The notes under the pieces: generated by a model
What the model saw: the letters and a program-made list of their open reading frames with translations, nothing else
Told to the model about the DNA's origin: nothing
Databases searched by the model: none
In this document: positions 4,856 through 57,714 of the stretch, piece after piece
How positions within the stretch are numbered: position 1 is the first letter of the stretch
Layout: the number at the start of each line of letters is the position of its first letter
Source of the DNA: Candidatus Spongiisociaceae bacterium
Lineage (GTDB): Bacteria > Actinomycetota > Acidimicrobiia > Spongiisociales > Spongiisociaceae
Length of the DNA: 64,000 bases
Assembly (NCBI GenBank): GCA_965202675.1
Contig: OZ241842.1
Location: 323,188 to 387,187, forward strand
Reading direction: 5' to 3'
Position numbers and translations under genes: made by a program

Positions 4856-5503
4856 CTACTCCCCTTGGTGACTCTCCCCTGAATCCGAAGGGACCGTTTT
4901 GCTCTCGAGCCGGATACGCAGCTGGTCGAGGGAACTCAGAGCCCGGTCGAGGCTGGGGGAACGCCGACGAGCCCGGTCGGGGCTCCACGACCCCTGTACA
5001 TATTTCTGCACAATCTCCACATATTCAGGGCCTACCCGCCGCCCGTTGCCCTGACGGGGAGGCACCCCTTCTCTGATCTGCCTCCTTCTTGACTTCCGGC
5101 AGAGGTTGAGCAATGAGATCTTGGGGTCCTCGAGTTCGTCGACCCTGTAGGGAAGCTGACGGCGTACTGCGAAGAAATCGGCAAAGGCCTCGGAGTCGGC
5201 CATAAGCCAGGCTTCGATTGACCGTACAGCCAGGCGGAAGCACATTCCGCCGTTGGCTTGGCCATCGAGAAGGTTTACCCGGAGTTCAGGAACACAGCGG
5301 TCTCGGTCATCTTGATCCAAGTCTCTGATAACCAGCCATGCCGAATGCGCGGCAGATCTGTTGATACCAGGCAACTTCTTGTCGAGTTTTGCCTTCCCTC
5401 CCACTATGAACGGTCGGGCTGGATGCAGTCCCGAGGCTTGAAGAAGTTTCTCAGCCACTGGTTGATCGGTTGGTCCTTCGACCGCGTATCTGACATATAA
5501 CAT
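4856..5503 (-). CDS. DUF4276-like protein, partner of upstream AAA ATPase
   Basis: N-terminal MLYVRYAVEGPTDQ (VEGxTD/E motif typical of DUF4276 family as I recall it); start overlaps ATPase stop by 1 nt; lower GC than flanks. Confidence 0.65.
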   Translation of the reverse strand: MLYVRYAVEGPTDQPVAEKLLQASGLHPARPFIVGGKAKLDKKLPGINRSAAHSAWLVIRDLDQDDRDRCVPELRVNLLDGQANGGMCFRLAVRSIEAWLMADSEAFADFFAVRRQLPYRVDELEDPKISLLNLCRKSRRRQIREGVPPRQGNGRRVGPEYVEIVQKYVQGSWSPDRARRRSPSLDRALSSLDQLRIRLESKTVPSDSGESHQGE

Positions 5504-6657
5504 CAGAATGCCGGAAGACGATCTATATCATCGGGCGCGGTCTCCGGGTTTAGTATTTCAGCAAGATTAAAACCGGCATCCAAGAAAGATTCTATATCGG
5601 GAATCTTTGTTGCCGGCAAGGCGGTCGTTCCTTCTTCACCGGGTTTGAGGATGAGAATTTCGTCCAAGCCCAGACCGGGGTCTTCCAACATCTCGGTGGA
5701 GTGGGTAGACAGGATGAACTGCGAGCGGTTGCCTCTTGCCGCCTTGTGCAAAATGGTGGGAAGCCAGCGCACGATGGCGGTGTGAAGCGACAGCTCCGGC
5801 TCCTCCAGGAGGATCACGCGGCCCTTTTTCCCCGCTTTTTCTTGGATCATCCACAACAATCCGATCAGCCGCAGCGTACCGTCCGAAAGATCGTGCTCGC
5901 TCTGTTTAGCCCCGGATTGCCGCCAGTGTTTGTACCGGGCTGCGAGGTGCGGCTTGCCGGCATCGTCGCGCTCAAAGGACAAATCGTCTAGTTGCGGCAC
6001 TGCGATGCGCAAGGCGGCGTTGATCCGTTTCAGACGCGAATCCCTGGTGCGTTCGGCGGTCCCGGCGAGGCGCACCAGGAAATCACCGCCGAACGGGTCG
6101 TCTTGCCTGCCGTGGCCGAGCTCGGGGTCGCGGATGATCTGGGGCACCAGGTGCATATATCTGACCTCTTCGAGAAACTCTGCGATCGGTCGGAACCCAC
6201 GGTTGGTGTTCACCTGTTCCAGTGCGGTCTGGGTCAGGCGCTCTGCATCTTCTTCGTCGTTCTGATCCGGCCGATCGAGGATGGTTTGGCCGTCTTTGCT
6301 GACTGTCTCCCGTCGAACGCTGGGGCGGTGCAGTCCCCGCTGTTCTGCTGTAAAATGCAACTCATATACCCAGGAAGGGCCGTCGTCCGCGGCTTGTAGC
6401 TCAAGCTTGATCCCTACCCATCCGTGGTTGTAGTTGCGGGCGGCCAGGCACCGCACCCGTTTGAGGCCGCCGCGTACGGCTACGGCGTGTTGAAGTCCGC
6501 CGCCGACGGCGGCTATATCCCGCAGGAAACGAAGGGCGTCCAGCAGGTTCGATTTTCCAGAGGCGTTCGGGCCGACCACCAAGAGGCGATTCCCTACTGC
6601 GGTTTCTACCGACTTGAAGTTGCGCCAGTTCTTCAACGTGAGATGTTCTATCCGCAC
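5503..6657 (-). CDS. AAA family ATPase (AAA_21 / ABC-type, OLD/RecF-like N-terminus)
   Basis: Walker A VVGPNASGKSNLLDAL at N-terminus, ABC signature-like LSDGTLRLIGLL, Walker B ILLEEPELSLH, H-loop STHS; 384 aa. Confidence 0.85.
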   Translation of the reverse strand: MRIEHLTLKNWRNFKSVETAVGNRLLVVGPNASGKSNLLDALRFLRDIAAVGGGLQHAVAVRGGLKRVRCLAARNYNHGWVGIKLELQAADDGPSWVYELHFTAEQRGLHRPSVRRETVSKDGQTILDRPDQNDEEDAERLTQTALEQVNTNRGFRPIAEFLEEVRYMHLVPQIIRDPELGHGRQDDPFGGDFLVRLAGTAERTRDSRLKRINAALRIAVPQLDDLSFERDDAGKPHLAARYKHWRQSGAKQSEHDLSDGTLRLIGLLWMIQEKAGKKGRVILLEEPELSLHTAIVRWLPTILHKAARGNRSQFILSTHSTEMLEDPGLGLDEILILKPGEEGTTALPATKIPDIESFLDAGFNLAEILNPETAPDDIDRLPAF

Positions 6658-6939
6658 CGCGGTTCACCTTCCGGCTGGAGCCAGTGACGGCATTATAGGT
6701 CAGCGGCCCGGGTAATATGGCTCTTCGAAGTTGAGCGGTGAGGGGTGATATGAAGGGAAGGAGGAATCCGCGGGGGTCGGGGTGAGGTCCTCCATTATCG
6801 AACGCCGAAACTTTCCCGTACGCCGCCTCGCGGGACCATCAACATACAAGGAGGAATACCCGCCGCCGCAACAACCACACGCCTCATTCGGAACCGCCTC
6901 ATCCGGTCCGTAACCCTTCCCTCACCTGCCCATCATCCA

Positions 6940-7188
6940 AGAACGCGAAAACCCGCGCACCACCCCCGGCTGCGCCGGGACCCGCCCCCGCCTCCTCCAC
7001 CAGCACCGGATCCATCGCTTGGGCAAGCCGCCCCTGTTCAGGCGCCGGCGCCCGAACAGACAGTATTCCGATAATGACCGCCGCGCTCTCCGGAACTCCG
7101 GCGACGGTGTTTGTGTGTCAGCACACACATAGTACCGCAAACCTATGACAAACCCAATACCCTCATCCCAGAACGCGAAAAATATTCC
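6940..7188 (-). repeat. promoter-bearing intergenic repeat element, copy 1 (minus orientation), bounded by AGAACGCGAAA motifs
   Basis: Shares >80% identical core with copies at 22800-23051, 57601-58215, 62441-63030. Confidence 0.75.
7122..7157 (-). promoter_or_regulatory. sigma70-like promoter TTGGGT-N17-TACTAT reading toward AAA-ATPase/DUF4276 operon
   Basis: -35 at 7152-7157 (rc TTGGGT), 17-bp spacer, -10 at 7129-7134 (rc TACTAT); same architecture conserved in all element copies. Confidence 0.5.
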
Positions 7189-7221
7189 TGCCGGCGCCGG
7201 GAGGGGCCGGCCTGTCCCCGG

Positions 7222-9231
7222 TCAGCGCGGAGGGCGGGCGGCGGCGGACAGCTCCTCCACCGCCTCGTCCAGGGGTACGCCGCGCCGGTCCCGCTTCTCC
7301 CCCCGCAGGCGCAGCCCCACCGTGCCGGCGGCGGCGTCCTGGTCGCCGGTAACCAACAATGCCGGGATCTTCCGGGTGATGGCCGAGCGGACCTTCTCCC
7401 CCAGCCTGCCCGGCCCGCTTCCGGCCTCGACCCGCAGACCCCGCTCCGACAAGGCGGCGGCGGCCTCGGATGCGTAGGCCTCATGGCGGTCGGCCACCGG
7501 GATCACCGCCGCCTGCACCGGCGCCAGCCACATGGGGAACGCCCCGGCGTAGTGCTCGATCAGCACCCCCAGGAACCGCTCCACCGACCCGAACTTGGCG
7601 GAGTGGATCATCACCGGGCGTTCCCGCCCATCGGCGGGGGTCACGTATTCCAGGCCGAAGCGTTCGGGAAGGGAGAAGTCCACCTGGATGGTGGACATCT
7701 GCCAGCGGCGCCCGATGGCGTCTCGGATGTGCACGTCGATCTTCGGGCCGTAGAAGGCCCCCTCCCCCTCCGCCGCCGTGTAGGGGACGCCCGCCTCCCG
7801 CAGGGAATCCTCCAGGGCCTGTTCGGCCAGCTGCCAGAGGCCCAGCTCGCCCACCCACTTCTCCTCGGGGCGGGTGGCCAGCTCCGCCTCGAACTCCTCG
7901 AATCCGAAATCCCGGAGCAGGCCGAGCACGAAGTCGAGGTGCATCAGCAACTCGGAGGGGACCTGCTCCCGGGTGCAGAAGGTGTGGGAGTCGTCCTGGG
8001 TGAACCCCCGGGCCCGCATCAGGCCGTGGACCACGCCCGACCGTTCGTAGCGGTAGACCGCCCCCAGCTCGGACAGGCGCATGGGCAGCTCCCGGTAGGA
8101 ACGGGCCGCCGAACGGTAGATCAGGACATGGAAGGGGCAGTTCATGGGTTTGACCCGGTACTCGTCCTGCTCGTCCATCTCCATGCCCGGGTACATGTTC
8201 TCGGCGTAGAAGTCGAGGTGGCCGGACACGCCCCACAGGCCGGCCCGCGCCAGGTGGGGGGAGTTGACGAAGTCGAAGCCGTAGGCCTCGTGGGCGCGCC
8301 GGCTGTAGCCCTCCACCAGACGGCGCAGCATCCCGCCCTTGGGATGCCACACCGCCAGGCCCGGCCCCAGCTCGTCGGGAAACGAGAACAGGTCCAGCTC
8401 GCGGCCCAGCTTGCGGTGGTCCCGCCGGGCCGCCTCCTCGATCCGATGCAGGTAGTCGTCCAGGGCCCTGCGGCTCTCCCAGGCCGTCCCGTAGATGCGC
8501 TGGAGCTGGGGCCGGCGCTCGTCGCCCCGCCAGTAGGCGCCCGCCGTCCGGGTCAGCTTGACCGCCTTCAGCCGGCCGGTCGAAGGCAGGTGCGGCCCCC
8601 GGCACAGATCCACGAATCCCTCGTTGCGGTAGACCGAGACCGCATCGCCCGACTCCACCTCCGACCCTTCCGCCGAGCGGATGATCTCGGTTTTGTAGGG
8701 GTGGTCCCGGAACAGCTCCAGCCCGGCGGCGCGGGGCATCTCCTCCCGCACGAACGGCTGGTCGGCCTCGATGATCCGCTGCATCTCGGCTTCGATCCTC
8801 TCCAGGTCCTCGGGGGTGAAGGGGCGTCCGACGTCGAAGTCGTAGTAGAAGCCGTCGGCGATCGCCGGGCCGATGGCGAAGGTGGCCCCCTCGAACAGGT
8901 TCAACACCGCCTGGGCCAGCACATGGGCGGCCGAGTGCCGCAGCACCGACCGGCCCTCCTCCGAGGACTCGGTGATCACCGCGAACCGCCCGCCCGCCTC
9001 GATGGGGCGGTCCAGGTCCATCATCACCCCCTCGACCGAAACCGCCACCGCCGCCGCGGCCAGGCGCGGTCCGACCGCCTCGGCCGCCCGGCGGCCGGTT
9101 ACTCCGCGGTCGTGGCGGGCAATGGTCCGGTCGGGAAGGATCAGATCGATGGTCTCGATGGCCACAGCAGGATCGACCTCGGTTCGTTCGGGGCCGCCAT
9201 CGTAACCGCTCCGGGCGCGCCGCCCGGTCAC
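7222..9231 (-). CDS. thrS: threonine--tRNA ligase
   Basis: TGS/editing/class II core motifs (SAAHVLAQAV, MNCPFHV, GAFYGPKIDV, anticodon-binding C-term); exact start uncertain. Confidence 0.9.
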   Translation of the reverse strand: MTGRRARSGYDGGPERTEVDPAVAIETIDLILPDRTIARHDRGVTGRRAAEAVGPRLAAAAVAVSVEGVMMDLDRPIEAGGRFAVITESSEEGRSVLRHSAAHVLAQAVLNLFEGATFAIGPAIADGFYYDFDVGRPFTPEDLERIEAEMQRIIEADQPFVREEMPRAAGLELFRDHPYKTEIIRSAEGSEVESGDAVSVYRNEGFVDLCRGPHLPSTGRLKAVKLTRTAGAYWRGDERRPQLQRIYGTAWESRRALDDYLHRIEEAARRDHRKLGRELDLFSFPDELGPGLAVWHPKGGMLRRLVEGYSRRAHEAYGFDFVNSPHLARAGLWGVSGHLDFYAENMYPGMEMDEQDEYRVKPMNCPFHVLIYRSAARSYRELPMRLSELGAVYRYERSGVVHGLMRARGFTQDDSHTFCTREQVPSELLMHLDFVLGLLRDFGFEEFEAELATRPEEKWVGELGLWQLAEQALEDSLREAGVPYTAAEGEGAFYGPKIDVHIRDAIGRRWQMSTIQVDFSLPERFGLEYVTPADGRERPVMIHSAKFGSVERFLGVLIEHYAGAFPMWLAPVQAAVIPVADRHEAYASEAAAALSERGLRVEAGSGPGRLGEKVRSAITRKIPALLVTGDQDAAAGTVGLRLRGEKRDRRGVPLDEAVEELSAAARPPR

Positions 9232-13354: not shown

Positions 13355-13591
13355 AGAACGCGAAAAAAGCCGCCCCCTCGCCCCGCTTCACGGGCCCGGC
13401 CCCCACCTCCGCCACCTGGATTCCGGACGCGGTCGGTCAGTACCCCGGAGGGCCGCGTTCGGAAGATGATCCCTGTCACGGTCTGCGCCGGCTGCGGACC
13501 GGAGGTGCTTTCGGCTCCTCCATTGATACAGCATCGGTGCGACAAGGTCAATACCCTTGTGCGGGATCCGGCGGGATTTTTTTGTCATTCC
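13355..13591 (-). repeat. promoter-bearing repeat element, variant family, copy 5 (~90% identical to 52906-53140)
   Basis: AGAACGCGAAAAA...TTTTTTTGTCATTCC boundaries; internal GGTATTGACC-N17-TATCAA on minus strand. Confidence 0.7.
13516..13551 (-). promoter_or_regulatory. sigma70-like promoter TTGACC-N17-TATCAA reading toward MerR gene
   Basis: -35 rc at 13546-13551, -10 rc at 13523-13528. Confidence 0.45.
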
Positions 13592-13642
13592 GCGGTTTTA
13601 TCCGATGAGCCCCCTCGACCACTGTCCGTTTCGGGTTCGGGG

Positions 13643-17387: not shown

Positions 17388-17461
17388 CGGGCTGTGGCGC
17401 AGCTTGGCAGCGCGCTTGACTGGGGGTCAAGAGGTCGCGGGTTCAAATCCCGCCAGCCCGA
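17388..17461 (+). tRNA. tRNA-Pro (anticodon GGG)
   Basis: Cloverleaf by hand: acceptor CGGGCTG/CAGCCCG, D-arm GCGC-AGCTTGGCA-GCGC, anticodon stem CTTGA/TCAAG with loop CTGGGGG, T-arm GCGGG-TTCAAAT-CCCGC. Confidence 0.85.
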
Positions 17462-17654
17462 CCGGAATACCCGAATCGCCCGCCGCGGCGGCGCCGTGCG
17501 GCGGGGCGGCAGGGTCAGGTGACCCACCGGATCAGGGCGGTCACCCCCTGCACCAGCCTCCACCCCAGATACAGGGCGGCCAGCCCCGCCAGCAGCTTGA
17601 AGCCGAAGGGCGTCCGGGGGGGCTCCTGATCCTCCGGCGGGGCCGGCGGGCCGT

Positions 17655-19088: not shown

Positions 19089-20210
19089 ATGCCTCCGACG
19101 ACCGGGTCCGGTCCCCCCACGCCCCCCCGCCGGGGCAGCCCGCCCTCCGGTTCCCGCCGGCCCGCCAAGGTGCTGTTGGCCGAGCCGCGCGGTTTCTGCG
19201 CCGGGGTGGACATGGCCATCAAGGCCCTCGCATGGATGGTCAAGATATTCGACCCCCCGGTGTACTGCTATCACGAGATCGTCCACAACCGGTTCGTGGT
19301 CGAGGCCTTCGAGCGGGCCGGGGTGGTGTTCGTGGATTCGATCCGCCGGGTTCCCCGAGGCGCCCCGGTGATGCTGTCCGCCCACGGATCGGCGCCCGAG
19401 GTGGCGGACGGGGCGGCGGAGCGGGCCGGGGTGGTCATAGACGCGGTGTGCCCGCTGGTTACCAAGGTCCATCACGAGGTCAGGAAAGCCGCCAACCGGG
19501 GCTTCGACATCCTGTTCGTGGGCCACGAGGGCCACGACGAGGCGGTGGGCACCCTGGCGGAGGCCCCCTCGTCCATCACGCTGGTGGAGCCGGAGACCGG
19601 GCTGGCCGATTTCACCCCCGAGGACCCCGGACGGGTGGCCCTCTTCGCCCAGACCACCCTCGGCCTCCACGAATGGGAGGAGGTGCTGTCCGAGGCGTCC
19701 CGGCGCTACCCCGGCCTGGTGACCGCCCGCAAGAGCGACCTCTGTTACGCCACCACCAACCGCCAGGCGGCGGTGCGGGAGATGAGCGGGCGGTGCGACC
19801 TGATCCTCGTGGTGGGTTCGGACAACTCGTCCAACACCAGGGCGCTGGTGCGCACCGCCCGGGTGCTCGGCGCCCCCGCCCACCGGGTGGACTCGGCGGA
19901 CGCCGTCCGCGACGAATGGCTGGACGGCGCCGAGGTGGTGGGGGTGACCGCCGGGGCCTCGGCCCCCGACAACCTGGTGCGGGAGGTGGTGGAGCGCATC
20001 CGCCCCTCCGAGGGCTGGGAGCTGCTCCGCATCACCGAGGAAGACGAATACTTCCCCCTCCCCCGCCGCCTCCGATCCTTCCTCACCGCCCTCGAAGCCG
20101 CCCTCGCCCTCGGTTTCACCGCCCGCCCCGGCGCCCCCGGCCCCCTTTCCCAGGACCGCCAAGCCACCGCCGCCCGCGCCCTGTCCGCCCTGTCCGCCCC
20201 CCAACCCTGA
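19089..20210 (+). CDS. ispH: 4-hydroxy-3-methylbut-2-enyl diphosphate reductase
   Basis: VLLAEPRGFCAGVDMAI and conserved Cys ligands; start may lie slightly downstream of 19089. Confidence 0.85.
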   Translation: MPPTTGSGPPTPPRRGSPPSGSRRPAKVLLAEPRGFCAGVDMAIKALAWMVKIFDPPVYCYHEIVHNRFVVEAFERAGVVFVDSIRRVPRGAPVMLSAHGSAPEVADGAAERAGVVIDAVCPLVTKVHHEVRKAANRGFDILFVGHEGHDEAVGTLAEAPSSITLVEPETGLADFTPEDPGRVALFAQTTLGLHEWEEVLSEASRRYPGLVTARKSDLCYATTNRQAAVREMSGRCDLILVVGSDNSSNTRALVRTARVLGAPAHRVDSADAVRDEWLDGAEVVGVTAGASAPDNLVREVVERIRPSEGWELLRITEEDEYFPLPRRLRSFLTALEAALALGFTARPGAPGPLSQDRQATAARALSALSAPQP

Positions 20211-20317
20211 TCACCCTGTCCCCGCGTTTCGCGAAGCCTCAAATAATTCCCCGCTCTGCCCGCCCGCGTCCACTTCGTGTTCTATAATCCACCCGGATGG
20301 GTGGCAGGAGCTGAGAC

Positions 20318-21007
20318 GTGATAGATGAGGGTACACAAGAGCGCCTGCTGGAGGCGACCAGACAATTTTGGTCTTATCATGTGACGACCGATGAGTTTCA
20401 GAGTCTCGCATCCGGCAAAGAGATCGGACACCGTATCGCCGACTATGTTGAAGAACACACTGTTGGCTTGATCGATGCAGAGTTTTCGACCGGGTATCAA
20501 CTGAAAAGGGATGGACAACGGGCGGCTCGAGGAATGGGCGACGTATGGGTCAAGTCCAATGACATCTTCAATCCGATTAATATAAAGTCCGGAGAATTAT
20601 TCAAAAAAGGTCAACCCAACATGGTATCTCTCAAAAAGCTTCTACGCGGTGTGCTTGAAAGAAAGATTGACTCCTATTACCTGCTCATAGTAAAATTTGA
20701 TCCGATAAACAAACGGGCAGATATAAATTTGGTTGATCTTCTAGACTATCTGGATTATACACATTTTGATTCAGGACCGGGGCAGATAATGCTCCGCGAG
20801 CGAGACTTCTATGAGGTTCTTGATTCCGATTATGAACCACCGCTCTTGACGTTACGAGAAAAGGTGGATATCCTCTTGAAAACACTACAGGAAGGCGACG
20901 AGAGACTGCAAAAGAACCGCGAAAAGGCACAAAAAGAGCTTATGGGACTGGCAGAACAGTTTGACATTGAAATGCCGATCAACCAGCAATCTCTGAATAT
21001 CGGATGA
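20318..21007 (+). CDS. hypothetical protein; candidate restriction endonuclease partner of downstream methyltransferase
   Basis: 229 aa, AT-rich codons, stop overlaps MTase start by 4 nt; no confident nuclease motif seen by eye. Confidence 0.45.
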   Translation: MIDEGTQERLLEATRQFWSYHVTTDEFQSLASGKEIGHRIADYVEEHTVGLIDAEFSTGYQLKRDGQRAARGMGDVWVKSNDIFNPINIKSGELFKKGQPNMVSLKKLLRGVLERKIDSYYLLIVKFDPINKRADINLVDLLDYLDYTHFDSGPGQIMLRERDFYEVLDSDYEPPLLTLREKVDILLKTLQEGDERLQKNREKAQKELMGLAEQFDIEMPINQQSLNIG

Positions 21008-22656
21008 GCCAGGCAAAAGATAAGCGCGTTCCGAAACGGCAGAAGGGGCAGTTTCTTACCCCTCAGCCTCTGGCGCTGGACGTACTGTCCGATATCGAGT
21101 TCAAAAGAACCGATCGTGTACTCGAGCCGGGCTTTGGAGAGGGGTCCTTTCTCCTTCCCTTGATTGAGGCATTTCTGGAACTGTATGATGGTCCGACTGC
21201 CAGCCGACTCGACCATATATTGAACAACAATGTTTGGGGTGTCGAGATAGACCCTGCTATGTATGACAAGGCCCTTTCGAATATTGAAGAAAGAATAGCT
21301 CCACTTCCTGCTTCACATAATCTTTTACTAGAAGACTATTTTGAAACAACTTTTGATAGTAATACTTTGCGCTCTGATTTCGCTAGCGGCTCATTTCGGT
21401 CCAGCCTGGACTTTACGCATGTTATCGGCAATCCACCGTTTGGCGGAACAATTGCGTCCTATTTACAGGATTCACTCGACAAAGTGCTTGGTTGGCGTCA
21501 TGGAATAAAGATCAAAAAGGAGACCTACGCTTGGTTTATAATAAAGAGTCTAGATCTATTAGCGGATGATGGAATACTCAGGTTCATATGCAGTGACACC
21601 TTTCTTACGATATATACAATGCGCGGCCTTCGCAATGCTTTGGCGCTGGAAGGACAACCCACTGTATGGCCACTCAATAAATTTTCGGAAGAAACTTCTT
21701 ATCCGATGGTAGTTCTCGATTGGGTAAAAACAGGCTCTGCAGACCACGTACTAATAGATGGAGATCCTATACCTATTACAGATATTGAGCGGACTGCCAA
21801 TCTATCTTGGGGGTTGAATCGAGACATGGTTCCATATTTTCAAGGGCCGTCCCTCGGTGAATTCATGGTTGCGACGAGTGGAATGACAACAGGAAACAAT
21901 TCTCTGTTTATACGTGAAGTTCACGATAATATTATTTCAGAACCGTATGAGTTCACTTTTGAGGAGGCGCCGATTACTTTGGGCAAAGAGATACAGCGAG
22001 CAAGACTGGGCCGCTTATCTGCCAAAAGGATAAAGCAAATCAAAGAGTTGGAAAAACAAGGAAAGACCAGGCGTGAGCTGAAACCCCTTAGATTGCCTTC
22101 TCCTAACGTTATCGACCTGCCGAACGAAGACTATCTGCCTTATAATAAAGCTACCGGCAGTCTTGTATACAGTCGTCCTACTCACTATATATATTGGAAA
22201 GATGATGGAGATGCTGTTCTGACATATAAGAAAACCGGCAACTGGTATCTTCATGGAATAGGAGGCGCCAAGTATTTCGGCAGAGAAGGTTTGACCTGGC
22301 GGCTGATCTCTGGCACTCTCGATGTCAGATACCTTCCTACAGGATACATACTCGACAGCGGCGCTCCTTGCGCCTTCCCGCGTCCTGGAGTATCGCAAGA
22401 AGAAATGCTGTTCATCATGGGATGGACGCTGACCGACAAATGTACTCAGATCCTCAAGCAGGTCATAAACCATACGATGAACATTCAAGGCAAGGACTTC
22501 GAGCGGTTGCCGTACCCCTTTTGGGTAGGCAGCGACGAACGCTCCGAAGCAGTATCGTTGGTTATGAGTATGCTCGATGAAGGTTTCGATGGGCGTCAAT
22601 TCTCAAGACAGGACCCGGAGTTCGATGCTTTGGAATCTCTATTCAGGATGGCATAG
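21004..22656 (+). CDS. N6-adenine-specific DNA methyltransferase (gamma-class, TaqI/Eco57I-like) with C-terminal target-recognition region
   Basis: Motif I VLEPGFGEGSF, motif IV IGNPPFGG; 550 aa; very low GC relative to genome. Confidence 0.8.
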   Translation: MSQAKDKRVPKRQKGQFLTPQPLALDVLSDIEFKRTDRVLEPGFGEGSFLLPLIEAFLELYDGPTASRLDHILNNNVWGVEIDPAMYDKALSNIEERIAPLPASHNLLLEDYFETTFDSNTLRSDFASGSFRSSLDFTHVIGNPPFGGTIASYLQDSLDKVLGWRHGIKIKKETYAWFIIKSLDLLADDGILRFICSDTFLTIYTMRGLRNALALEGQPTVWPLNKFSEETSYPMVVLDWVKTGSADHVLIDGDPIPITDIERTANLSWGLNRDMVPYFQGPSLGEFMVATSGMTTGNNSLFIREVHDNIISEPYEFTFEEAPITLGKEIQRARLGRLSAKRIKQIKELEKQGKTRRELKPLRLPSPNVIDLPNEDYLPYNKATGSLVYSRPTHYIYWKDDGDAVLTYKKTGNWYLHGIGGAKYFGREGLTWRLISGTLDVRYLPTGYILDSGAPCAFPRPGVSQEEMLFIMGWTLTDKCTQILKQVINHTMNIQGKDFERLPYPFWVGSDERSEAVSLVMSMLDEGFDGRQFSRQDPEFDALESLFRMA

Positions 22657-22799
22657 GGAGCGCGTATCCGTAATGGAACCCCAATTTTCGCCTTGCCGGT
22701 CATACCCCAAGCCCCCCAGTATTACAGATTCTTGCGGCCCCGGTCCAACTTCGAATCATTCCCGGAAGCTCCCTGGCGAACACATCCCGTGAACCGCCG

Positions 22800-23051
22800 A
22801 GAACGCGAAAAACCTGCGCCCCCCCGCCCGGCTCCGCCGGGCACCCTCCCCCGCCGCCACCGCCAGCCATCGGATCTCCGCCTGGACGCGCCGCCCCTGT
22901 TCGGGCGCCGGCGCCCGGCCTGACAAGATTCCCATGATGACCGCCGCGCACTCCGGAACCCGGCGGCGGTGTTTGTGTGTCAGCGAACACATAGTACCGC
23001 AAACCTATGACAGAGTCAATACCCTCATCATAGAACGCTAAAAATAATTCC
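22800..23051 (-). repeat. promoter-bearing repeat element, copy 2
   Basis: AGAACGCGAAAAA start, AAAAATAATTCC end, core identical to copy 1. Confidence 0.75.
22984..23019 (-). promoter_or_regulatory. sigma70-like promoter TTGACT-N17-TACTAT (reads toward 3' end of MTase gene, convergent)
   Basis: -35 rc at 23014-23019, -10 rc at 22991-22996. Confidence 0.45.
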
Positions 23052-23143
23052 GGTCCGGGCTGCCCGGCCTCCTGCGCGCAACCCCCGGAATCCGTCTGCC
23101 GAGGCCGGCGCGGCGGCGCGGGGACCCTGCTTCCATCTGCAGG

Positions 23144-26394: not shown

Positions 26395-27179
26395 GAGCCG
26401 TACCCGTATCCGTCGGCCGCGGCCGGGACCGCAGGAGCGTCATCCCTCCGCCGCACCTCGATCTCGGAGGGGTGCTCCTGCGCCACCGACAGCACCCCCC
26501 ACCGGGCCAGCTCCAGCACGGCCAGGAAGTAGGCCGCCACCTCCACCCGGCGGCGGCAGTGGGACACCAGCCTGCTGAAGGTGGATTCCAGCTCGGCGGT
26601 CATGCGCGCCCTGATCTCCTCCATGGCGCCGCCGATCGACGGCAGGTCGAAGTCCAGGTGGTCGACTTCGAGTTCGGGTTCTACTTCAGGTGCATCCTCA
26701 ACCTCTAGCAGAGCTTCATAGACGGCGGCCAGGGCGTCCGGCGTGACCGCCGGGGGCAGGGCGGGCGCCGCCCGGGCGGCCGTTTCCCGGTCCATCCCCG
26801 CGGTGCGGCCCCGGTAACGGGCCGTTCCGGCCAACCGCCGCCCGAACACGGCCGCCATGTCCTCGAAGGTGAGGAAGGCCAGCAGCCGGGCCAGCAACCG
26901 GTCCCGCTCGTCCAGCAGGGCCAGCTCCTCCTCCAGATCGGGGAGGCTGCGGTCGGCCAGCAGGAAGCGGGCCTTGATCTGGAGGAGCATGGCGGCCATC
27001 AGGAGGAACCCGGAGGCGGCGTTGAGGTCGATGATGCTCATGGCCTCCGCCTCCGCCAGGTAATCGTCCACGATCCCGGCGATGTCCACCCTCGTCACGT
27101 CCACGTGGCGCTGGTTCACGAGCTGGATCAGCAGCTCGAAGGGCCCCTCGAACACCTCCGTCTTCACTTCGTACGCCAT
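26391..27179 (-). CDS. scpA: segregation and condensation protein A
   Basis: N-terminal FEGPFELLIQLV kleisin motif; start at internal ATG 27179. Confidence 0.8.
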   Translation of the reverse strand: MAYEVKTEVFEGPFELLIQLVNQRHVDVTRVDIAGIVDDYLAEAEAMSIIDLNAASGFLLMAAMLLQIKARFLLADRSLPDLEEELALLDERDRLLARLLAFLTFEDMAAVFGRRLAGTARYRGRTAGMDRETAARAAPALPPAVTPDALAAVYEALLEVEDAPEVEPELEVDHLDFDLPSIGGAMEEIRARMTAELESTFSRLVSHCRRRVEVAAYFLAVLELARWGVLSVAQEHPSEIEVRRRDDAPAVPAAADGYGYGS

Positions 27180-28175: not shown

Positions 28176-29081
28176 TTACCGCAGGGCCCGGGGATGGGCC
28201 TCCACGTACACTTCGTGCAGGTGCCGGAGCGACATGCGCGTGTACACCTGCGTGGTGGAAACACTAGCGTGTCCGAGGATTTCCTGTACGGTGCGCAGGT
28301 CGGCGCCCCCCTCCACCATGTGGGTGGCGGCCGAATGGCGCAGGACATGGGGCGAGATGCGGGCGGCGGGGATGCCCGCCCGTTGCGCATGCTTGCGCAC
28401 GATTCCGAAGACCCCCTGGCGGGTCAGCCGCCCCCCCCTGGCGTTGAGGAACACCGCCCCCGGATCATCCCCCGGGCGGCGCAGCTCCAGCCGGTCCGGA
28501 AGGTAACCCTCGATGGCCTCCGCGGCGGGCCGGCCCAGCGGCACCATCCGCTGCTTCGACCCCTTGCCGGTGACCAGGGCGCTGCGGGTGTCCAGATCCA
28601 GCTCCGCCAGATCGAGGCCCACCAGCTCGCTCACCCGCACCCCCGTCCCGTACAGGGTCTCCAGCATGGCCCTGTCCCGCCTGCCCAGCACCGTGTCCGC
28701 GGGGGGCGCCTCCACCAGGCCGATCGCCTCGTGCACATCGAGCGCCTTGGGGAAACCCAGCCGGCTGCGGGGCGTCTCGGCGAACCGGGTGGGGTCCTCC
28801 TCCGCCTCCCCCTCCGCCACCAGAAACCGATGGAACCCCCGCACCGCCGCCAGCTTGCGGGCCACGGTGGAAACCTCCATGCCCCGCTCATGCAGCGAGG
28901 CCAGATACCCGTCCACCAGCTCCGGCGTGGGCTCCTCCCCCTCCAGAAACGCCAGATACCCCTCCAGGTCCCCCCGGTAGGCGGTAACCGTGTTGCGGCT
29001 CAGCCCCCTCTCCACCGCCAACGCAGACAGATACCCCTCCGTCTGGGGTTCAAGTGGATGGGGTTCGACCTTCTGCGTCAT
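28176..29081 (-). CDS. xerD: site-specific tyrosine recombinase XerD
   Basis: Catalytic R..HxxR..Y block (PHVLRHSAATHM, LGHASVSTTQVYT); chromosomal context next to pyrG as in other actinobacteria. Confidence 0.85.
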   Translation of the reverse strand: MTQKVEPHPLEPQTEGYLSALAVERGLSRNTVTAYRGDLEGYLAFLEGEEPTPELVDGYLASLHERGMEVSTVARKLAAVRGFHRFLVAEGEAEEDPTRFAETPRSRLGFPKALDVHEAIGLVEAPPADTVLGRRDRAMLETLYGTGVRVSELVGLDLAELDLDTRSALVTGKGSKQRMVPLGRPAAEAIEGYLPDRLELRRPGDDPGAVFLNARGGRLTRQGVFGIVRKHAQRAGIPAARISPHVLRHSAATHMVEGGADLRTVQEILGHASVSTTQVYTRMSLRHLHEVYVEAHPRALR

Positions 29082-29397
29082 GCAAGCCCCTATGCAGGTG
29101 ATTAATGCAGTCTCCCCATGTTACGGCCGTAAGGCCGTGATCAGTGGAACATTCTGCCGCGCTCATCGCCTGCCTCGACTCGAAGGCCACCGAGCGAATT
29201 GCGCTCTCATGTATTCCGGGGATACGAAGCTCTTCATCACGGATCAGCTGCTGGCAAGTCTCGACCCGTGTACACTGGACGAAGGGACAGAAGCGGTGTG
29301 CACATCCCCGCGTGGTCGGATGCTTCTCCGGATGTAACATTGCCGCTCGTTTGGGAACCCACTGGATGATTCAGCGGGGAGGAAGGATGAAGGAACG

Positions 29398-29634
29398 ATG
29401 ACTGTCGCTGACGTGTTTTACGACATCACCGAAACCGCCGAAGGCTGGGAAGTCGCCGCTGGCGGCCGGGGCGGCAACTGGAAACGGATGTACCCTACCG
29501 CTCATGCCGCGCAACAAGCCGTCCTCGCCGCCGAGGAAGAACAAACCGCCGCGGAAGGCCGTGACCGGACAGCAGTGATCGACTGGACGCCGGTCACCGC
29601 CGTCGGGAGGGCGGTCGTCGCGGCTATCACCTGA
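29398..29634 (+). CDS. small hypothetical protein (78 aa)
   Basis: Good RBS GGAGGAAGG upstream; lower-GC island. Confidence 0.4.
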   Translation: MTVADVFYDITETAEGWEVAAGGRGGNWKRMYPTAHAAQQAVLAAEEEQTAAEGRDRTAVIDWTPVTAVGRAVVAAIT

Positions 29635-29649
29635 AAGGAACCAAGAACG

Positions 29650-29877
29650 ATGACAAACCATCTGTCTTTCTTCGAGTACCTTGACCGGGCGGCCTGCGAC
29701 GAGCCGTACACCGACGAGGATTGGCGTCTTGCAACAGAGCGGGTGCGGGCAATCCGCGAAAGAGTGTTGGCCGATCCCAGGATCGCCGAACTCGAAGACC
29801 GTAAATATGCCGAGATTACCAGGCGAGTCCAAAAGCTCAAGGCGGTTCGCCGCGACGGCGGACGGCTCGAGTCATAG
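29650..29877 (+). CDS. small hypothetical protein (75 aa)
   Basis: RBS AAAGGAA upstream; 15-nt gap to previous gene. Confidence 0.4.
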   Translation: MTNHLSFFEYLDRAACDEPYTDEDWRLATERVRAIRERVLADPRIAELEDRKYAEITRRVQKLKAVRRDGGRLES

Positions 29878-29937
29878 ATGTTGGTTCGTCCCGAATCACC
29901 AATGAGCGGCGGAGCGGTTGTTTGTATTCGCTTACGA

Positions 29938-30876
29938 CTATCGACGGCCGCCCAATCGGGCGAGCGAGCGGTGAGGCCTGACAAAGAGGTTGTAATAGTG
30001 CCAATTAACATAAGGAATAGCAGGCGGATCATATCCGGCCTGCGGCATTCGCATATGAGATCCTATCAGCTCCATGACAGGTAACTGCGCCTCCCCTCCC
30101 CGCGTAATCATGTGCTGGCTAACGAGTATTCGATGATCTTGGTCCAGTCCTAGAGCTCCGCGGTCGAACAGCCGGTGATGGAACACACAAAGCGCCATTC
30201 CATTGGTGATGTGGTCGGGCCCGTGATATGAACGCATCTTTACGTGGGCGGCATCGATCGCCAATGGTCGGCCCTTGAGACTCCCATTGAATCCACAGAA
30301 CGAACATTGGTTCTCATAAGCCAGCAGAACAGTGCGCCTGAAGTCGGGATCTCTGGGAGCCGCGACTGTCGTGACAAGATGCCCCAGATTGACCTCTTCA
30401 AGAATTTCAGCATGGAGAGTGTCCGGGAACTCCATATCCAATAGGGTGTTGACCACCCTGGAACGCACTTGCGGGCTCTGCAAAGCCAGCTCGAAATCGG
30501 GGGCCAAATAGCCGGTGGCCTCTTGCCGCAGGAACGGTGTACTTTCCCGTACATTCTGCGGCATGGCGGCTATATCGTTGCCGTTGGTATCCTCTACCCT
30601 CCACAGATCGCGTTCGGTTCCGAGGTATACGAAGGGGTTGGCCACTCGAAGCACGGTGCCCAGGCGATGCTTGTCCATCAATTGTTTCAAGTCCTCCTCA
30701 GCATCTTGGAAGGAGATTCGGGTAGGCAATCTTGCGGCTTGTCGTCCGATGAGCCACAGCAACAACAACGGTTTGTACGGCGCGCGTCTGTCCCCGCCGG
30801 CAAATCGCCTTATCGATCTGACCTTGTCGGCCCAATGTCTGGCGCTCTCCGGATCTGTCGTTCTTATGCGCTGCAC
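29938..30876 (-). CDS. HNH endonuclease family protein (HNH_2-like C-terminus), candidate modification-dependent restriction enzyme
   Basis: CSFCG...AAHVKMRSYHGPDHITNGMALCVFHHRLFDRGALGLD HNH signature at C-terminus; ~200-aa uncharacterised N-terminal domain. Confidence 0.75.
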   Translation of the reverse strand: MQRIRTTDPESARHWADKVRSIRRFAGGDRRAPYKPLLLLWLIGRQAARLPTRISFQDAEEDLKQLMDKHRLGTVLRVANPFVYLGTERDLWRVEDTNGNDIAAMPQNVRESTPFLRQEATGYLAPDFELALQSPQVRSRVVNTLLDMEFPDTLHAEILEEVNLGHLVTTVAAPRDPDFRRTVLLAYENQCSFCGFNGSLKGRPLAIDAAHVKMRSYHGPDHITNGMALCVFHHRLFDRGALGLDQDHRILVSQHMITRGGEAQLPVMELIGSHMRMPQAGYDPPAIPYVNWHYYNLFVRPHRSLARLGGRR

Positions 30877-30928
30877 GTCGAGGGTAAATCTAGCTCATGC
30901 AGAAAAGGCCTGCTCTGCGGGATCGGGG

Positions 30929-32236
30929 TCAACGCCGCTCCTCTCCCTCCGTCCGCTCCTCGGACGCCTCCGCGTCCGCCGCCCAGATGATGAGGCGCAG
31001 CTCGCTGTCGTCGATCACGGTGTACTCGGGCCGCCGCCCCGACAGGGCGCGGCTCTCGTCGAGGATGATCGGCACCCCGTCCCCCCGCCGCTCCATCATG
31101 TAGGTACGGTTCAGGCGCTCGTTGTCGACGGGGCATCTGACCAGGAGGGAGGCGATCAGCTCGTTTCTGCTGTGCTGCCGATACTGCATGCCTTCCGTTG
31201 TCAGCGTGTTGGTGAGGCCGCCCGGAACGTACAGCTCGATCCGATCCTTGAACATATGCAGCCTGATCCGGGCACCCGCCATCGAATAATCACGGTGCGC
31301 CACCGCGTTCACGAGCGCCTCGAACACGGCGCGCTCGCTGTATTGCGGCCGCTCCGTCCGGGCCAGTTTCTTTGCAGCTCTGGTGAACATGTTCTTGCGG
31401 ACAAAGCCAAGAGCCTCCATAACCTGGGTGTCCAGAGGGCCGACAATGTCGCGGGCGTCTGGTTGATAGTTGATATCTGATCTCTCTCCGGTGTAACTGA
31501 CTGCTTGAATGTATGCATGAGGTATCCGGTCGCTCGGTGTTCGGGTACACATCAGAACCCCGGCTACTGTGATACCGGCATTGCCGCTTCTATCGTAAGC
31601 GATGATCCTCATGTTGCTCAGTGTTTCCTCGGTCATATCAATATTGTGCCGGAGATATTTACCGACCAAAACAGGGTCCAGCATATCCGGTGTGGTTCTA
31701 GGAACTATCAATTCATCAAATCTTATCATTCTATTTTGACTGTGTTCTTGAAATATCCTCGAAAGCAATTCTGGCCTCATTTTACGGTTGGAGTTTCCTG
31801 TTCTACGAAAGTAACCGTTTGGACTACTGTGTACAAACATACTGCGGGCGACATCAATATAGATTATTGGAACGGGGTTGCCCTCGAAATCAGGCAGTTT
31901 GACCTTGCGGATCAATACATCTAGCGGAGGATCCACAGAATCGCCGCATATTCCGCTTGCCCATTCTTCTACAGCCGCTAGGTGTTCGATAGGGATTCCC
32001 AGGACTTCATTATCTTTATCAGAGGCTCCCAGAACAACAGTCCCGCCTCTGCTGTTTGCCATGCCCGCCATGGTGTCTGCCAGGTCATTGCGCCTTGGGC
32101 CGACCACTTTGGAACCGCTCAAGAAAACTTGTTGAAGCTCCAGGTTCAAATCTTCACCGAGCCGTATACGGCTCGCCAAACTTCTGGTGTCTACCATGTT
32201 CCTGTACCTCGTTTTCTGCGCCCGGTGGCAAGCCAA
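30929..32236 (-). CDS. AlbA_2 (Schlafen-like) + HATPase_c_4 domain protein (COG2865-type putative DNA-binding ATPase/regulator)
   Basis: N-terminal GGTVVLG...DNEVLGI divergent-AAA/AlbA_2 block, C-terminal NAVAHRDY histidine-kinase-like ATPase motif; 435 aa. Confidence 0.65.
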   Translation of the reverse strand: MACHRAQKTRYRNMVDTRSLASRIRLGEDLNLELQQVFLSGSKVVGPRRNDLADTMAGMANSRGGTVVLGASDKDNEVLGIPIEHLAAVEEWASGICGDSVDPPLDVLIRKVKLPDFEGNPVPIIYIDVARSMFVHSSPNGYFRRTGNSNRKMRPELLSRIFQEHSQNRMIRFDELIVPRTTPDMLDPVLVGKYLRHNIDMTEETLSNMRIIAYDRSGNAGITVAGVLMCTRTPSDRIPHAYIQAVSYTGERSDINYQPDARDIVGPLDTQVMEALGFVRKNMFTRAAKKLARTERPQYSERAVFEALVNAVAHRDYSMAGARIRLHMFKDRIELYVPGGLTNTLTTEGMQYRQHSRNELIASLLVRCPVDNERLNRTYMMERRGDGVPIILDESRALSGRRPEYTVIDDSELRLIIWAADAEASEERTEGEERR

Positions 32237-32248
32237 CGCCGCTTGGGG

Positions 32249-34324
<2,076 letters not shown>

Positions 34325-34783
34325 CTAGTTGGTTTCGCGTAAGTGAAGGAAGTTAATCGCTGTGTTGTCGTCCTTGCCTTCTAGGTAAAGGTACAAGTCT
34401 ACAGTGAGGAGCGGTGTTTCCGGTTTGGCGGCCTCGAGAAGCGCCGCATCCGTCAACCCAAGCCGCTTGAACTCGCTGTTCTGTGAAGCCGTCCGACTTG
34501 CAATGACGATTTCTTCACTTCTTTGTATTAGTAGTTGAAGCTGTTCAAAGAGCGCAGATCTTTCAGGCTCTCTGTGCTGGGCTAGTAGATTTGATGCTTC
34601 TGTGAGGGTGTTCGGTGTTACATATACATGCTTGACAGGTTTCAATAGCTCGCGCAAAAGCCTGTAATCATCAGATGTATAACCGCCGAGCCTGCGATGT
34701 TTGTATATCAAACCAATATCTACATCACCTGCGACCAGCAGCGTCAGCAGGTTTGCATCTATAAAGTATCCGATAGGTGACAC
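34325..34783 (-). CDS. PIN-like domain protein
   Basis: N-terminal FIDANLL (Asp1), TEAS, LTDAALL acidic residues in PIN-like spacing; GTG start 4 nt after upstream gene stop; low GC. Confidence 0.5.
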   Translation of the reverse strand: MSPIGYFIDANLLTLLVAGDVDIGLIYKHRRLGGYTSDDYRLLRELLKPVKHVYVTPNTLTEASNLLAQHREPERSALFEQLQLLIQRSEEIVIASRTASQNSEFKRLGLTDAALLEAAKPETPLLTVDLYLYLEGKDDNTAINFLHLRETN

Positions 34784-34787
34784 TGGC

Positions 34788-35072
34788 TTAGTTAGGTGCA
34801 GGCAAGATTCGATCTTCGACCGATAAGATCTTACCTTCTTTATCGTCGATGCAAACTACTTTATAGGCGCGGCCTTCGGCTCTGGTCATTATTGGATGAC
34901 CGAGCGGACCATTTACCTGTTCCCACTCTCTATTGAAGCCGACAGTTATGAACCAATTATCCGAGTCATAATCAAGCTTGATCTCTTCGAGCCCGACAAA
35001 GTTTATGCCTTCTTCACCGAAGAGCTCGATGATGTGCTGCTTGGCTGCTCTTGCGGCTTCTTTGACATCCAC
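34788..35072 (-). CDS. hypothetical protein, upstream partner of PIN-like gene
   Basis: GTG start with AAGGAG RBS; 93 aa; translationally coupled to PIN-like gene. Confidence 0.4.
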   Translation of the reverse strand: MDVKEAARAAKQHIIELFGEEGINFVGLEEIKLDYDSDNWFITVGFNREWEQVNGPLGHPIMTRAEGRAYKVVCIDDKEGKILSVEDRILPAPN

Positions 35073-52905: not shown

Positions 52906-53140
52906 AGAACGCGAAAAACCCCGCCCCGCGCCCCGCTTCGCGGGCCCGGCCCCCACCGCCTCCACCAGATGTCCGGACGCGTTCGGTCAGTACCCGGCAG
53001 GTCGCGTTCGGAAGATGATCCCTGTCACGGTCTGCGGCGCCTGCCGACCGGAGGTGCTTGCGGCTCTTCCATTGATACAGCATCGGTGCGACATCGTCAA
53101 TACCCTTGTCAGGGATCCGACGGGATTTTTTTGTCATTCC
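52906..53140 (-). repeat. promoter-bearing repeat element, variant family, copy 6, inside a ~780-bp dop-pup intergenic insertion
   Basis: ~90% identical to 13355-13591; left flank 52690-52905 carries three CTTTCTGCGAACCC motifs as in 12975-13300. Confidence 0.7.
53066..53101 (-). promoter_or_regulatory. sigma70-like promoter TTGACG-N17-TATCAA reading toward pup-prcB-prcA
   Basis: -35 rc at 53096-53101, -10 rc at 53073-53078. Confidence 0.45.
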
Positions 53141-54635
53141 GTGATTTGTCCGGACCGCCGGCGGCCTCACCCAGGGCTTCGAGCAGGTCGACGGCTTCCC
53201 CGGCGGCGTCGAGCAGCCCTCCCACCAGCTCCGCGCTGCCCCGCAGGGGTTCCTTCATGGGCACCCGCTTGAGGGTCTCCCCCCCGATGTCGAACACCAG
53301 GGAGTCCCAGTTGGCGGCGACCAACGATTCGGGGAACTGCCCCACGCACCGCCCCCGGAAGTAGGCCCTGGTGCCGGCGGGCGGGTGCAGGGCGGCGCGG
53401 TCCAGCGCCTCGTCGGTGAACAGGCGGCGGAGCAGCCCGCCCTCCTGCAGGCGGTAGGAGAGGCCCCGGGCGGGGTCGGTGTCGTGGTACTGGAGGGCGG
53501 CCAGGGCCAGCTTGGGGTGGCTCCATTCCAGGTCGTCGCGCCGGCGGAACCCGTTCAGCATGCGGAGCTTGGCCGACCAGTCGAGCCGGTCGGAGGTGCG
53601 CATGAAGTCGATCTCCAGGTCGTGGAGCACCGCCCCCCACTCGCGGATCACGTCGGCCCAGATCTCCCCGGGAAGGTGCTCGTCGGCGTACTTCGACAGC
53701 CGCTCGTGATACCGGAGCTGCAGCTCGAGGGCGGTGGCCGTCCCCCCGTCGGCCAGCCGCAAGGGCTCGGCCAGGGTGAGGTCGTGGCTGGTGCGCCAGG
53801 TCGCCTCCACCGGGTCGGCCAGGGTCAGGGGGTCGTGGACGGCGCCGTCCTCGACGGCCGCCAGCAGCAGGGCGGTTGCGCCCAGCTTGATGAAGGTCTG
53901 CACCTCCGACATGTTGGCGTCGCCGATGATTACGTGGAACCGCCGGTACTTGGAGGGCTCCCCATGGGGCTCGTCGCGGGTGTTGACGATGGGCCGCCGC
54001 AGGGTGGTCTCGAGACCCACCGCCTCCTCGAAGAAGTCGGCCCGCTGGGTGATCTGGTACCCGACGCCCGGACGTCCGTTCTCGGCGCCGAGCTTGCCCG
54101 AACCGGTGAATATCTGGCGGGTTACCAGCCAGGTGGTGGCGTAGCGGATGAGGTCGGCGAAGGGCGCGGCCCGCGAAACCAGATAGTTCTCGTGGTAACC
54201 GTAGGAGTTGCCCTTCCCGTCGCTGTTGTTCTTGTGTATGTACAGCTCCTCCTCCGGACGGAAGCCGCGGTACGCGGCGGCCGCGTCCGCCAGCACCCGC
54301 TCCCCCGCCTTGTCGTACAGTGCGGCCTGCAGGGGGTCGGAGCACTCCGGGCTGGAGTATTCGGGGTGGGCGTGGTCTACGTAGAAGCGGGCGCCGTTGG
54401 ACAGGACCACGTTGACCATGTTGTTGTTCGCCTCGGCGGGTCCGTACAGCTCGTACTCCAGGCCGCGGGCGTCCCGGTCGGGGGTTTCCTCGTCGTATGA
54501 CCACTGGACCCGCACCCGGTCGCCCCGGTAGGAGTTCACCACCCAGGAGGAGGCCAGGGTGGGGTGGAGGTCGGGGTTGTTGCGGACCGTGATCCCGTAT
54601 TCCGTCTCGGTCCCTATGACCGTGGGGACCGCCAT
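53109..54635 (-). CDS. dop: Pup deamidase/depupylase Dop
   Basis: MAVPTVIGTETEYG N-terminus, PafA/Dop fold; 3' end runs into repeat element. Confidence 0.85.
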   Translation of the reverse strand: MAVPTVIGTETEYGITVRNNPDLHPTLASSWVVNSYRGDRVRVQWSYDEETPDRDARGLEYELYGPAEANNNMVNVVLSNGARFYVDHAHPEYSSPECSDPLQAALYDKAGERVLADAAAAYRGFRPEEELYIHKNNSDGKGNSYGYHENYLVSRAAPFADLIRYATTWLVTRQIFTGSGKLGAENGRPGVGYQITQRADFFEEAVGLETTLRRPIVNTRDEPHGEPSKYRRFHVIIGDANMSEVQTFIKLGATALLLAAVEDGAVHDPLTLADPVEATWRTSHDLTLAEPLRLADGGTATALELQLRYHERLSKYADEHLPGEIWADVIREWGAVLHDLEIDFMRTSDRLDWSAKLRMLNGFRRRDDLEWSHPKLALAALQYHDTDPARGLSYRLQEGGLLRRLFTDEALDRAALHPPAGTRAYFRGRCVGQFPESLVAANWDSLVFDIGGETLKRVPMKEPLRGSAELVGGLLDAAGEAVDLLEALGEAAGGPDKSRNDKKIPSDP

Positions 54636-57678: not shown

Positions 57679-57714
57679 TTGAACTTGTCATAGGTTTGCG
57701 GTACTATGTGTGCG
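57679..57714 (+). promoter_or_regulatory. sigma70-like promoter TTGAAC-N17-TACTAT
   Basis: -35 57679-57684, -10 57702-57707, predicted TSS ~57714 followed by hairpin GTGTG-CGCTGA-CACAC. Confidence 0.5.

Follow-up and report, generated by a model that had tools for sequence, protein, structure and literature searches.

The window analysed here, 64,000 nucleotides (nt) of contig OZ241842.1 from an uncultured, high-GC Candidatus Spongiisociaceae bacterium of the class Acidimicrobiia (assembly GCA_965202675.1), carries a low-GC island between the host genes ispH and cmk. This island is very probably a self-contained type II, most likely type IIP, restriction-modification (R-M) operon of ~2.4 kb that includes a -10 element and a ribosome-binding site of its own. 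The upstream gene (R) codes for a predicted type IIP PD-(D/E)xK endonuclease of the SwaI/HincII/EcoRV class, an assignment based on modelled fold, conserved residues and gene linkage. The downstream gene (M) codes for a gamma-class N6-adenine DNA methyltransferase. A first-pass annotation of the window, made from its letters alone, had proposed such a cassette, and the two open reading frames (ORFs) of 229 and 550 amino acids (aa), which share 4 nt in the form ATGA, agree with its description. The island and its flanks are laid out as follows.

20318-21007, plus strand: R gene, 229 aa, GTG start, Shine-Dalgarno (SD) sequence AGGAG at 20306-20310
21004-22656, plus strand: M gene, 550 aa
20263-20317, plus strand: 5' leader of the cassette, with a -10-like TATAAT at 20283-20288, the hairpin CCACCCGGATGGGTGG at 20289-20304 and the SD AGGAG at 20306-20310
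22657-22795, no strand: spacer of 139 nt from the M stop codon to the core of a repeat element, GC ~60%
19089-20210, plus strand: ispH, left host flank, third-codon-position GC (GC3) 0.92; Pfam LYTB in the called gene of locus L001
23144-23830, minus strand: cmk, right host flank, convergent with ispH, start approximate; Cytidylate_kin in L001 and tblastn matches in relatives

The GC content of the R gene is 45.2% and that of the M gene 46.5%, against 69.4% for the remainder of the window, which agrees with the earlier estimate by eye of roughly 40-45% versus ~70%. In 300-nt windows the GC fraction drops from 0.72-0.75 to 0.40-0.50 at ~20250-22650 and then rises to 0.75-0.80; the fall starts near 20240, and the host level is regained by ~22800-23100. 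GC3 is 0.48 in R and 0.46 in M, as compared with 0.92 in the adjacent ispH, and the codon usage of the cassette is very unlike that of the host. The TATAAT hexamer of the leader is perfect and the stem of the leader hairpin measures 6 bp. A promoter and ribosome-binding stretch, TCCAC(T/G)TCGTGTTCTAT(A/G)AT ... GGAGCTGAGA(C/A)GTGAT, is conserved with the related loci L007/L008, which encode an R protein with 75% aa identity in an unrelated genomic context. The hairpin CCACCCGGATGGGTGG is not kept in L007.

The R protein has no match in Pfam, NCBIfam or PADLOC, and a profile of 36 R homologs retrieved nothing meaningful from the PDB sequences. Matches to epsin (E ~0.1) are located on the C-terminal helix and were rejected as chance. 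Structure prediction, which the first-pass annotation had recommended for this protein, returned a PD-(D/E)xK fold. The model, an AlphaFold2 run on the 36-sequence alignment, has a mean local confidence (pLDDT) of 92.8 and a predicted template-modelling score (pTM) of 0.85. DSSP assigns a helix at residues 36-55, strands at 76-80, 83-93 and 101-104, a helix at 105-113 and a strand at 121-128; this alpha-beta-beta-beta-alpha-beta order is the core of PD-(D/E)xK nucleases. The top Foldseek match in the PDB is R.SwaI in its free and DNA-bound forms (E 2e-8 and 5e-7, TM score 0.57-0.61), with an alignment of ~230 columns that covers the full length of both proteins (229 and 226 residues). More than 30 HincII chains, archaeal Hjc resolvases and EcoRV follow in that order. 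From a viral structure library, the model retrieved only weak matches, to PD-(D/E)xK nucleases and resolvases.

An alignment of homologs identifies E35, D75 and N88-x-K90 as family-invariant, and these candidate catalytic residues are the best-conserved positions across the family. Their codons are the following.

20420-20422: E35
20540-20542: D75
20579-20581: N88
20585-20587: K90

In an alignment of 32 sequences that includes 25 distant members (23-32% identity), E35 and D75 are still invariant, and N88 and K90 are conserved in at least 90%. In the model, E35 belongs to a GKExGHR motif just ahead of the long helix, D75 directly precedes strand 76-80, and N88-x-K90 lies within strand 83-93.

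The structural neighbours R.SwaI (PDB 5TGQ/5TGX), HincII and EcoRV are beta-class (EcoRV-like) PD-(D/E)xK endonucleases of type IIP. The catalytic residues of SwaI, D76, D93 and K95, are known from mutagenesis and metal-bound structures (PMC5415892). By numbering, D75...N88-x-K90 of R would correspond to D76...D93-x-K95 of SwaI in nearly equal position and spacing. Like SwaI, the modelled R has an acidic residue where a beta-strand begins, an x-K element in the next strand, a closely similar length with a full-length predicted fold match, and a separate adenine methyltransferase as its partner. Unlike SwaI, with which it shares ~16% identity and no sequence homology detectable by hidden Markov model (HMM), R has Asn in place of the second Asp and the invariant E35 ahead of its first long helix. 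The SwaI site ATTTAAAT is absent from the window. The proposal of the first-pass annotation that the small ORF could be the cognate endonuclease is thus borne out at the level of prediction, by fold, by conserved candidate active-site residues and by the strict gene linkage described below.

R homologs form 259 clusters at 90% identity, and every named one is called "hypothetical protein". They occur in Chloroflexota, Actinomycetota and other groups and fall into ~250 clusters at 50% identity; an HMM search of 1.84 billion representative sequences recovered 250 clusters at E ≤ 1e-3 and 196 at E ≤ 1e-10. Judged from these searches, the R family is discrete and not large.

The assignment of the M protein follows from its motifs and its domain matches, as the first-pass annotation had claimed. 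Pfam Eco57I (PF07669, 1e-9) and N6_Mtase (1.5e-6) both score over their cut-offs, and the catalytic region matches M.TaqI (8e-5, phmmer against PDB sequences). The motifs are located as follows.

aa 15-20, 21046-21063: motif X, GQFLTP
aa 41-49, 21124-21150: motif I, EPGFGEGSF
aa 79-83: GVEID
aa 143-146, 21430-21441: motif IV, NPPF

The motifs in the order X, I, IV and, behind them, a C-terminal target recognition domain (TRD) of ~300 aa (~250-550) make up the gamma-class arrangement, with the NPPF catalytic motif, that M shares with M.TaqI and Eco57I; unlike that of M.TaqI, the TRD of M is longer and resembles the TRD of the BREX methyltransferase PglX (PDB 8C45/8Q56). Residues 370-530 of M align with PglX residues 717-873 (PDB 8c45, 1.7e-9, PDB sequences), the NCBIfam PglX model matches aa 374-519 (2e-23) with 82 bits against a family cut-off of 500, and the PADLOC PglX model (4e-19, aa 374-530 of the TRD) also stays far under its cut-off. 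The same is true for PADLOC mad2 on the N-terminal domain (6e-14). We considered an identification of M as PglX and rejected it: M has half the size of that protein (550 versus ~1200 aa), has a small nuclease beside it, and PglZ, BrxC, BrxA, BrxB and BrxL are not among its neighbours in the window. Since the PglX scores lie below cut-off and no BREX partner gene is nearby, M is, as far as its sequence tells, a stand-alone gamma-class N6-adenine methyltransferase of type II with a PglX-like TRD.

The linkage of R to M was examined in metagenome contigs scanned with the R alignment, which yielded 80 loci. An M homolog is encoded at 76 of these, in 75 cases directly downstream on the same strand, at distances from 4-nt overlaps to gaps of up to 171 nt. 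At the remaining four loci the contig ends within 200 nt past R. Every R gene with room downstream is therefore accompanied by M (76/76), and R-only loci were not seen among them.

The converse situation, M without an intact R, does occur. In the population L005/L006, which shares the der-ispH locus with the window, ispH is followed directly by M; the segment that corresponds to window positions 20213-20943 is gone, which leaves no more of R than its final 20 codons. Locus L002, on a 3.76-Mb contig and with an M protein of 72% identity, carries an in-frame internal deletion that leaves a 60-codon fusion of R residues 1-26 to the C-terminal end (167-228 by tblastn), such that the catalytic core is deleted and M is retained. 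The R deletions of these two close relatives are independent of each other, and one of them lies at the locus of the window. M also stands without R in L009 (M 77% identical) and alone in L004, and L003 and L007/L008 hold intact R-M pairs in unrelated contexts. Repeated deletion of R with M left intact, and never the reverse, is the outcome expected of an endonuclease that is toxic unless a methylase protects the host.

Several relatives carry further genes beside M. In L004, two unannotated ORFs of 228 and 139 aa (6906-8014), which are not R homologs, precede the M relative. An 845-aa protein without a Pfam match follows M in L002 (11654-14191), and a type ISP restriction enzyme follows M in L007 (3241-8299), where it adjoins the R-M pair, and in L009 (6665-11438). 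Different nucleases may serve as partners within this M clade.

The question as to where the cassette came from was addressed with 22 Acidimicrobiia/actinobacterial loci of relatives, fetched through IspH; the closest IspH among species-representative genomes is 73% identical. Within the fetched stretches, cmk is present in 14 of the 22, der in 13 and aroA in 8, in the order and orientation seen in the window, and neither R nor M has a match anywhere in these loci. In L011, cmk begins ~60 bp after ispH. The absence from all 22 relatives and the short ispH-cmk gap of L011 show the cassette to be an insertion in this lineage. This comparison of the ispH-cmk junction had been suggested by the first-pass annotation as a check, and it argues against an ancestral cassette. 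Together with a GC3 far under that of the host, it also supports the claim that the cassette is foreign to the lineage. The cassette is thus horizontally acquired; it is not ameliorated, and therefore young on the scale of genome composition.

Low GC relative to the surroundings is a general property of this module. Among 35 independent loci that offer 2 kb or more of flanking sequence, 34 have an R-M pair with a lower GC content than its flanks, by more than 5 points in 27 and by more than 10 points in 11. This pattern suggests that the module is habitually a recent arrival. R homologs were absent from the plasmid and phage collections searched, which means that there is no evidence of travel on known plasmids or phages.

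The left boundary of the cassette can be placed near 20263, where the alignment with L007/L008, an independent insertion, ends. On the right side, similarity to other insertions does not continue past the M stop codon: the spacer 22657-22795 is common to L005 at the same locus and cannot be aligned with the 3' flanks of L007, L009, L002 or L003. A comparison of 20211-20330 with 22641-22800 gave no significant direct or inverted repeat.

The cassette is not as young as the first-pass annotation had it. The der-ispH flank of L005/L006 is 95.4-98% identical to the window, and since L005 carries an R-less version of the cassette in the identical position, the insertion predates the split from the L005 lineage. 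"Very recent" is thus an overstatement: even at 95.4% flank identity, this sister lineage has lost R and carries an M protein that differs by ~8%. The M alleles of the window and L005 differ at 16.7% of third positions and at 47 of 550 residues, and the third-position difference of ispH and der, 5-7%, is below that of M. We considered amelioration as the source of the M divergence and rejected it, because AT-to-GC changes are not in excess in either lineage once the substitutions are polarised with L007 and L009 (16 versus 22-24), and the divergence is hence unlike a drift towards host composition. M may have diverged beyond its flanks through relaxed constraint, through strong GC3 constraint on the host genes or through allele replacement by recombination.

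R-M units are known from comparative genomics of R-M mobility as recombinase-free mobile cassettes that sit between conserved genes. The cassette of the window resembles them as a minimal unit of promoter, R and M, in its intergenic insertion, in its occurrence in unrelated contexts and in its presence/absence polymorphism. It differs from them in that neither a long target duplication nor a flanking insertion sequence was found; a marginal direct repeat of 25/28 nt is described below.

We infer the following mode of action, in which the enzymatic activity of R, its dimer state, blunt cutting and recognition site, as well as the donor and the mechanism of insertion, are all deduced from relatives and models. 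R would be a small endonuclease of the EcoRV/HincII/SwaI class with an active site made of E35, D75, N88 and K90. By analogy with this class, it would bind as a homodimer to a short, probably palindromic site and cleave both strands with Mg2+, and its cuts may be blunt, as is typical of its structural class. M, translationally coupled to R through the ATGA overlap, would read the same site with its TRD and shield the host DNA by N6-methyladenine (m6A). The operon would stem from a donor of lower GC content and would have inserted between the convergent genes ispH and cmk in an ancestor of this Acidimicrobiia lineage, beside a resident repeat element. In the sister lineages, the toxic R would have been deleted and M would persist, which is the usual path of R-M decay.

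Some observations weigh against this interpretation. The second metal ligand of R would be an Asn (N88) and not Asp or Glu. Departures of this kind, with Asn or Gln in the (D/E)xK half-motif, have been described for type II restriction endonucleases (PMC2441816), and the invariant E35 probably supplies the missing carboxylate. Palindrome avoidance over 61 kb of host DNA gave no recognition-site signal; beyond the CTAG depletion that is usual, the scan showed no more than mild deficits of GAGCTC and CACGTG. Finally, the insertion is not accounted for by a recombinase, by inverted repeats or by a clear target duplication.

Among the alternatives, we weighed an orphan methyltransferase, for example one with a role in epigenetic regulation, next to an unrelated 229-aa ORF that is a hitch-hiker or a nuclease with a task other than restriction, such as a Holliday-junction resolvase or a repair enzyme. 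The lack of any annotation for the R family, the Hjc resolvases among the weaker fold matches and the loci with M alone (L005, L009, L004) would suit this explanation. We nevertheless consider it improbable: the best full-length fold matches of R are restriction enzymes and not resolvases, its most conserved positions are residues of catalytic type, the two genes overlap by ATGA, and R is always followed by M where there is room while M outlives R, the asymmetry expected of a toxic restriction endonuclease. Still harder to sustain is the idea that the cassette is what remains of a larger methylation-based defence system, or a minimal version of one (BREX-like, MADS-like or type IIG/IIL), in which M would work with other or additional partners. 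The PglX matches of the TRD, the mad2 match of the N-terminal domain and the type ISP enzyme just downstream of M in L007 and L009 speak for it. These scores fall far short of the family cut-offs, M is too small for PglX, the neighbours in the window are der, ispH, cmk, aroA and rluB with no PglZ, BrxC or BrxL, and the unit conserved over 75 loci consists of R and M only, which leaves this explanation very little room.

A further alternative accepts the R-M operon and concerns its present state: the cassette may be decaying or silent in this genome, with R intact yet unexpressed or inactive and the locus functionally an orphan methylase. In favour of this are two losses of R among close relatives, a promoter-like site of the neighbouring repeat that is directed antisense into M, a codon usage of the cassette far from that of the host, and the absence of a site-avoidance signal. 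Against these points stand a full-length R with all family-invariant residues, the conservation of the -10 element and the SD with L007, and a sequence free of any sign of inactivation. We regard a silent cassette as rather unlikely; by its sequence, the R-M operon looks intact.

This operon is an R-M system of an ordinary kind with a previously unnamed nuclease family, and the general understanding of R-M biology is unchanged by it. What it provides is a function, that of a predicted restriction endonuclease, for a set of "hypothetical proteins" that are always found alongside one clade of Eco57I-domain adenine methylases. The R family is without a Pfam, NCBIfam or PADLOC model, and REBASE may list members as putative. 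Since the former three resources miss the family, censuses of defence systems would score its loci as orphan methylases. The loci compared here also form a natural series of R-M decay, from the intact pair through an in-frame R deletion to the complete deletion of R with M kept at the same site, which can be used to study the origins of orphan methylases in uncultured high-GC Actinomycetota. A possible practical gain is that R might provide a new specificity. We put forward tentatively, as a joint proposal that we find possible and somewhat doubtful, that R founds an uncurated type IIP family with an E...D...N-x-K site and perhaps a new specificity and, more speculatively, that a genome-specific, promoter-bearing repeat designates places where defence cassettes preferentially insert. 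Two of the four copies of this repeat abut low-GC defence islands, namely this R-M pair and a HEC-01 candidate at 4856-6657.

The repeat is an intergenic element of ~260-415 nt with 84-92% identity between its copies, which lie at the following positions.

6865-7201, plus strand: copy 1
22796 to ~23075, plus strand: copy 2, truncated, between M and cmk, 84-91% identical to the other three
57653-58005, minus strand: copy 3
62467-62881, minus strand: copy 4

It contains a strong promoter-like TTGA(A/C)T-17-TACTAT, several GC-rich hairpins and, at one end, a hairpin with a T-tract. Copy 2 is without the left part that the other three copies have. On its minus strand, the promoter-like TTGACT-17-TACTAT (23019-22991) is aimed into the 3' end of M; the corresponding site in copy 1 points at the HEC-01 genes. 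Tandem repeats of 17 nt, GCGTTCTCGAATGGCGG and variants in 3-5 units, occur in copy 3 (57891-57958) and copy 4 (62721-62815) and are missing from copies 1 and 2. Neither the cassette nor the repeat element matches an RNA family in Rfam, searched with gathering and E-value thresholds. Among all fetched loci, the four-copy repeat is confined to this genome; it may be a miniature inverted-repeat transposable element (MITE)-like element or a duplicated terminator-promoter-leader module. We also considered a full-length repeat abutting the M stop codon and rejected it, as 22657-22795 is unlike the left parts of the other copies.

The first-pass annotation had described the cassette as bracketed by sequence of this repeat. 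The right side of this description holds, in the form of the truncated copy 2; the left side amounts to no more than a marginal match outside the cassette. This match starts with a 10-mer that occurs exactly twice in the window.

20241-20250, plus strand: left AAATAATTCC, outside the homology-defined cassette
23042-23051, plus strand: right AAATAATTCC, the terminus of copy 2 and the T-rich tail of a minus-strand hairpin downstream of cmk

The left AAATAATTCC and the following 15 nt match 23042-23069 at 25/28 positions (p ~0.016 against shuffles, uncorrected for 8 tests), and the match is to copy 2 only and not to the other copies. The alignment proposed earlier for the left junction included CGCGAA, and the match fails to extend leftwards into that part. 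The direct repeat, which also encloses the host repeat element, could be the remnant of a duplication made by the insertion, or chance. With a truncated copy on one side and a marginal match on the other, neither the bracketing nor the suggested acquisition through the repeat element is established.

Other parts of the window contain further candidates for defence functions. The HEC-01 candidate, a two-gene system on the minus strand with 56-62% GC, lies directly downstream of repeat copy 1. Its first gene (5503-6657) codes for an AAA_21 ATPase that matches PADLOC HEC-01A (2e-153) and is also AriA-like and OLD-like, and its second gene (4856-5503) codes for a DUF4276 protein that matches HEC-01B (3e-59). 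Another low-GC island (54-60%) extends over 28176-32236 on the minus strand, beside a gene for a XerC/D-type tyrosine recombinase (28176-29081). It contains an HNH_2 protein at 29938-30876, whose L001 version matches the ScoMcrA DNA-binding domain and is thus reminiscent of type IV, modification-dependent restriction, and a Schlafen/AlbA_2 protein with HATPase_c_4 at 30929-32236. Whether this type IV-like enzyme, if active, is compatible with the m6A methylase encoded by the cassette is a point of interest.

Smaller features were recorded as well. A 1-kb dip in GC at 34001-35000 reaches 54.8% versus ~70%. ARAGORN calls a tRNA-Ser (anticodon aga) at 26409-26492 on the minus strand; since the Rfam tRNA model finds only a tRNA-Pro at 17388-17463, this call is probably a false positive. 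A second repeat family has copies of ~235 nt at 13364-13598 and 52914-53147, 39.5 kb apart and 84-90% identical, both of which start with GAACGCGAAAAA, a 12-mer that also flanks the core of the four-copy element. Finally, a direct repeat of 300 nt (61515-61814 and 61995-62294, 77% identity, 480-nt spacing) lies in a region of long ORFs without a Pfam match and may represent an internal protein repeat.

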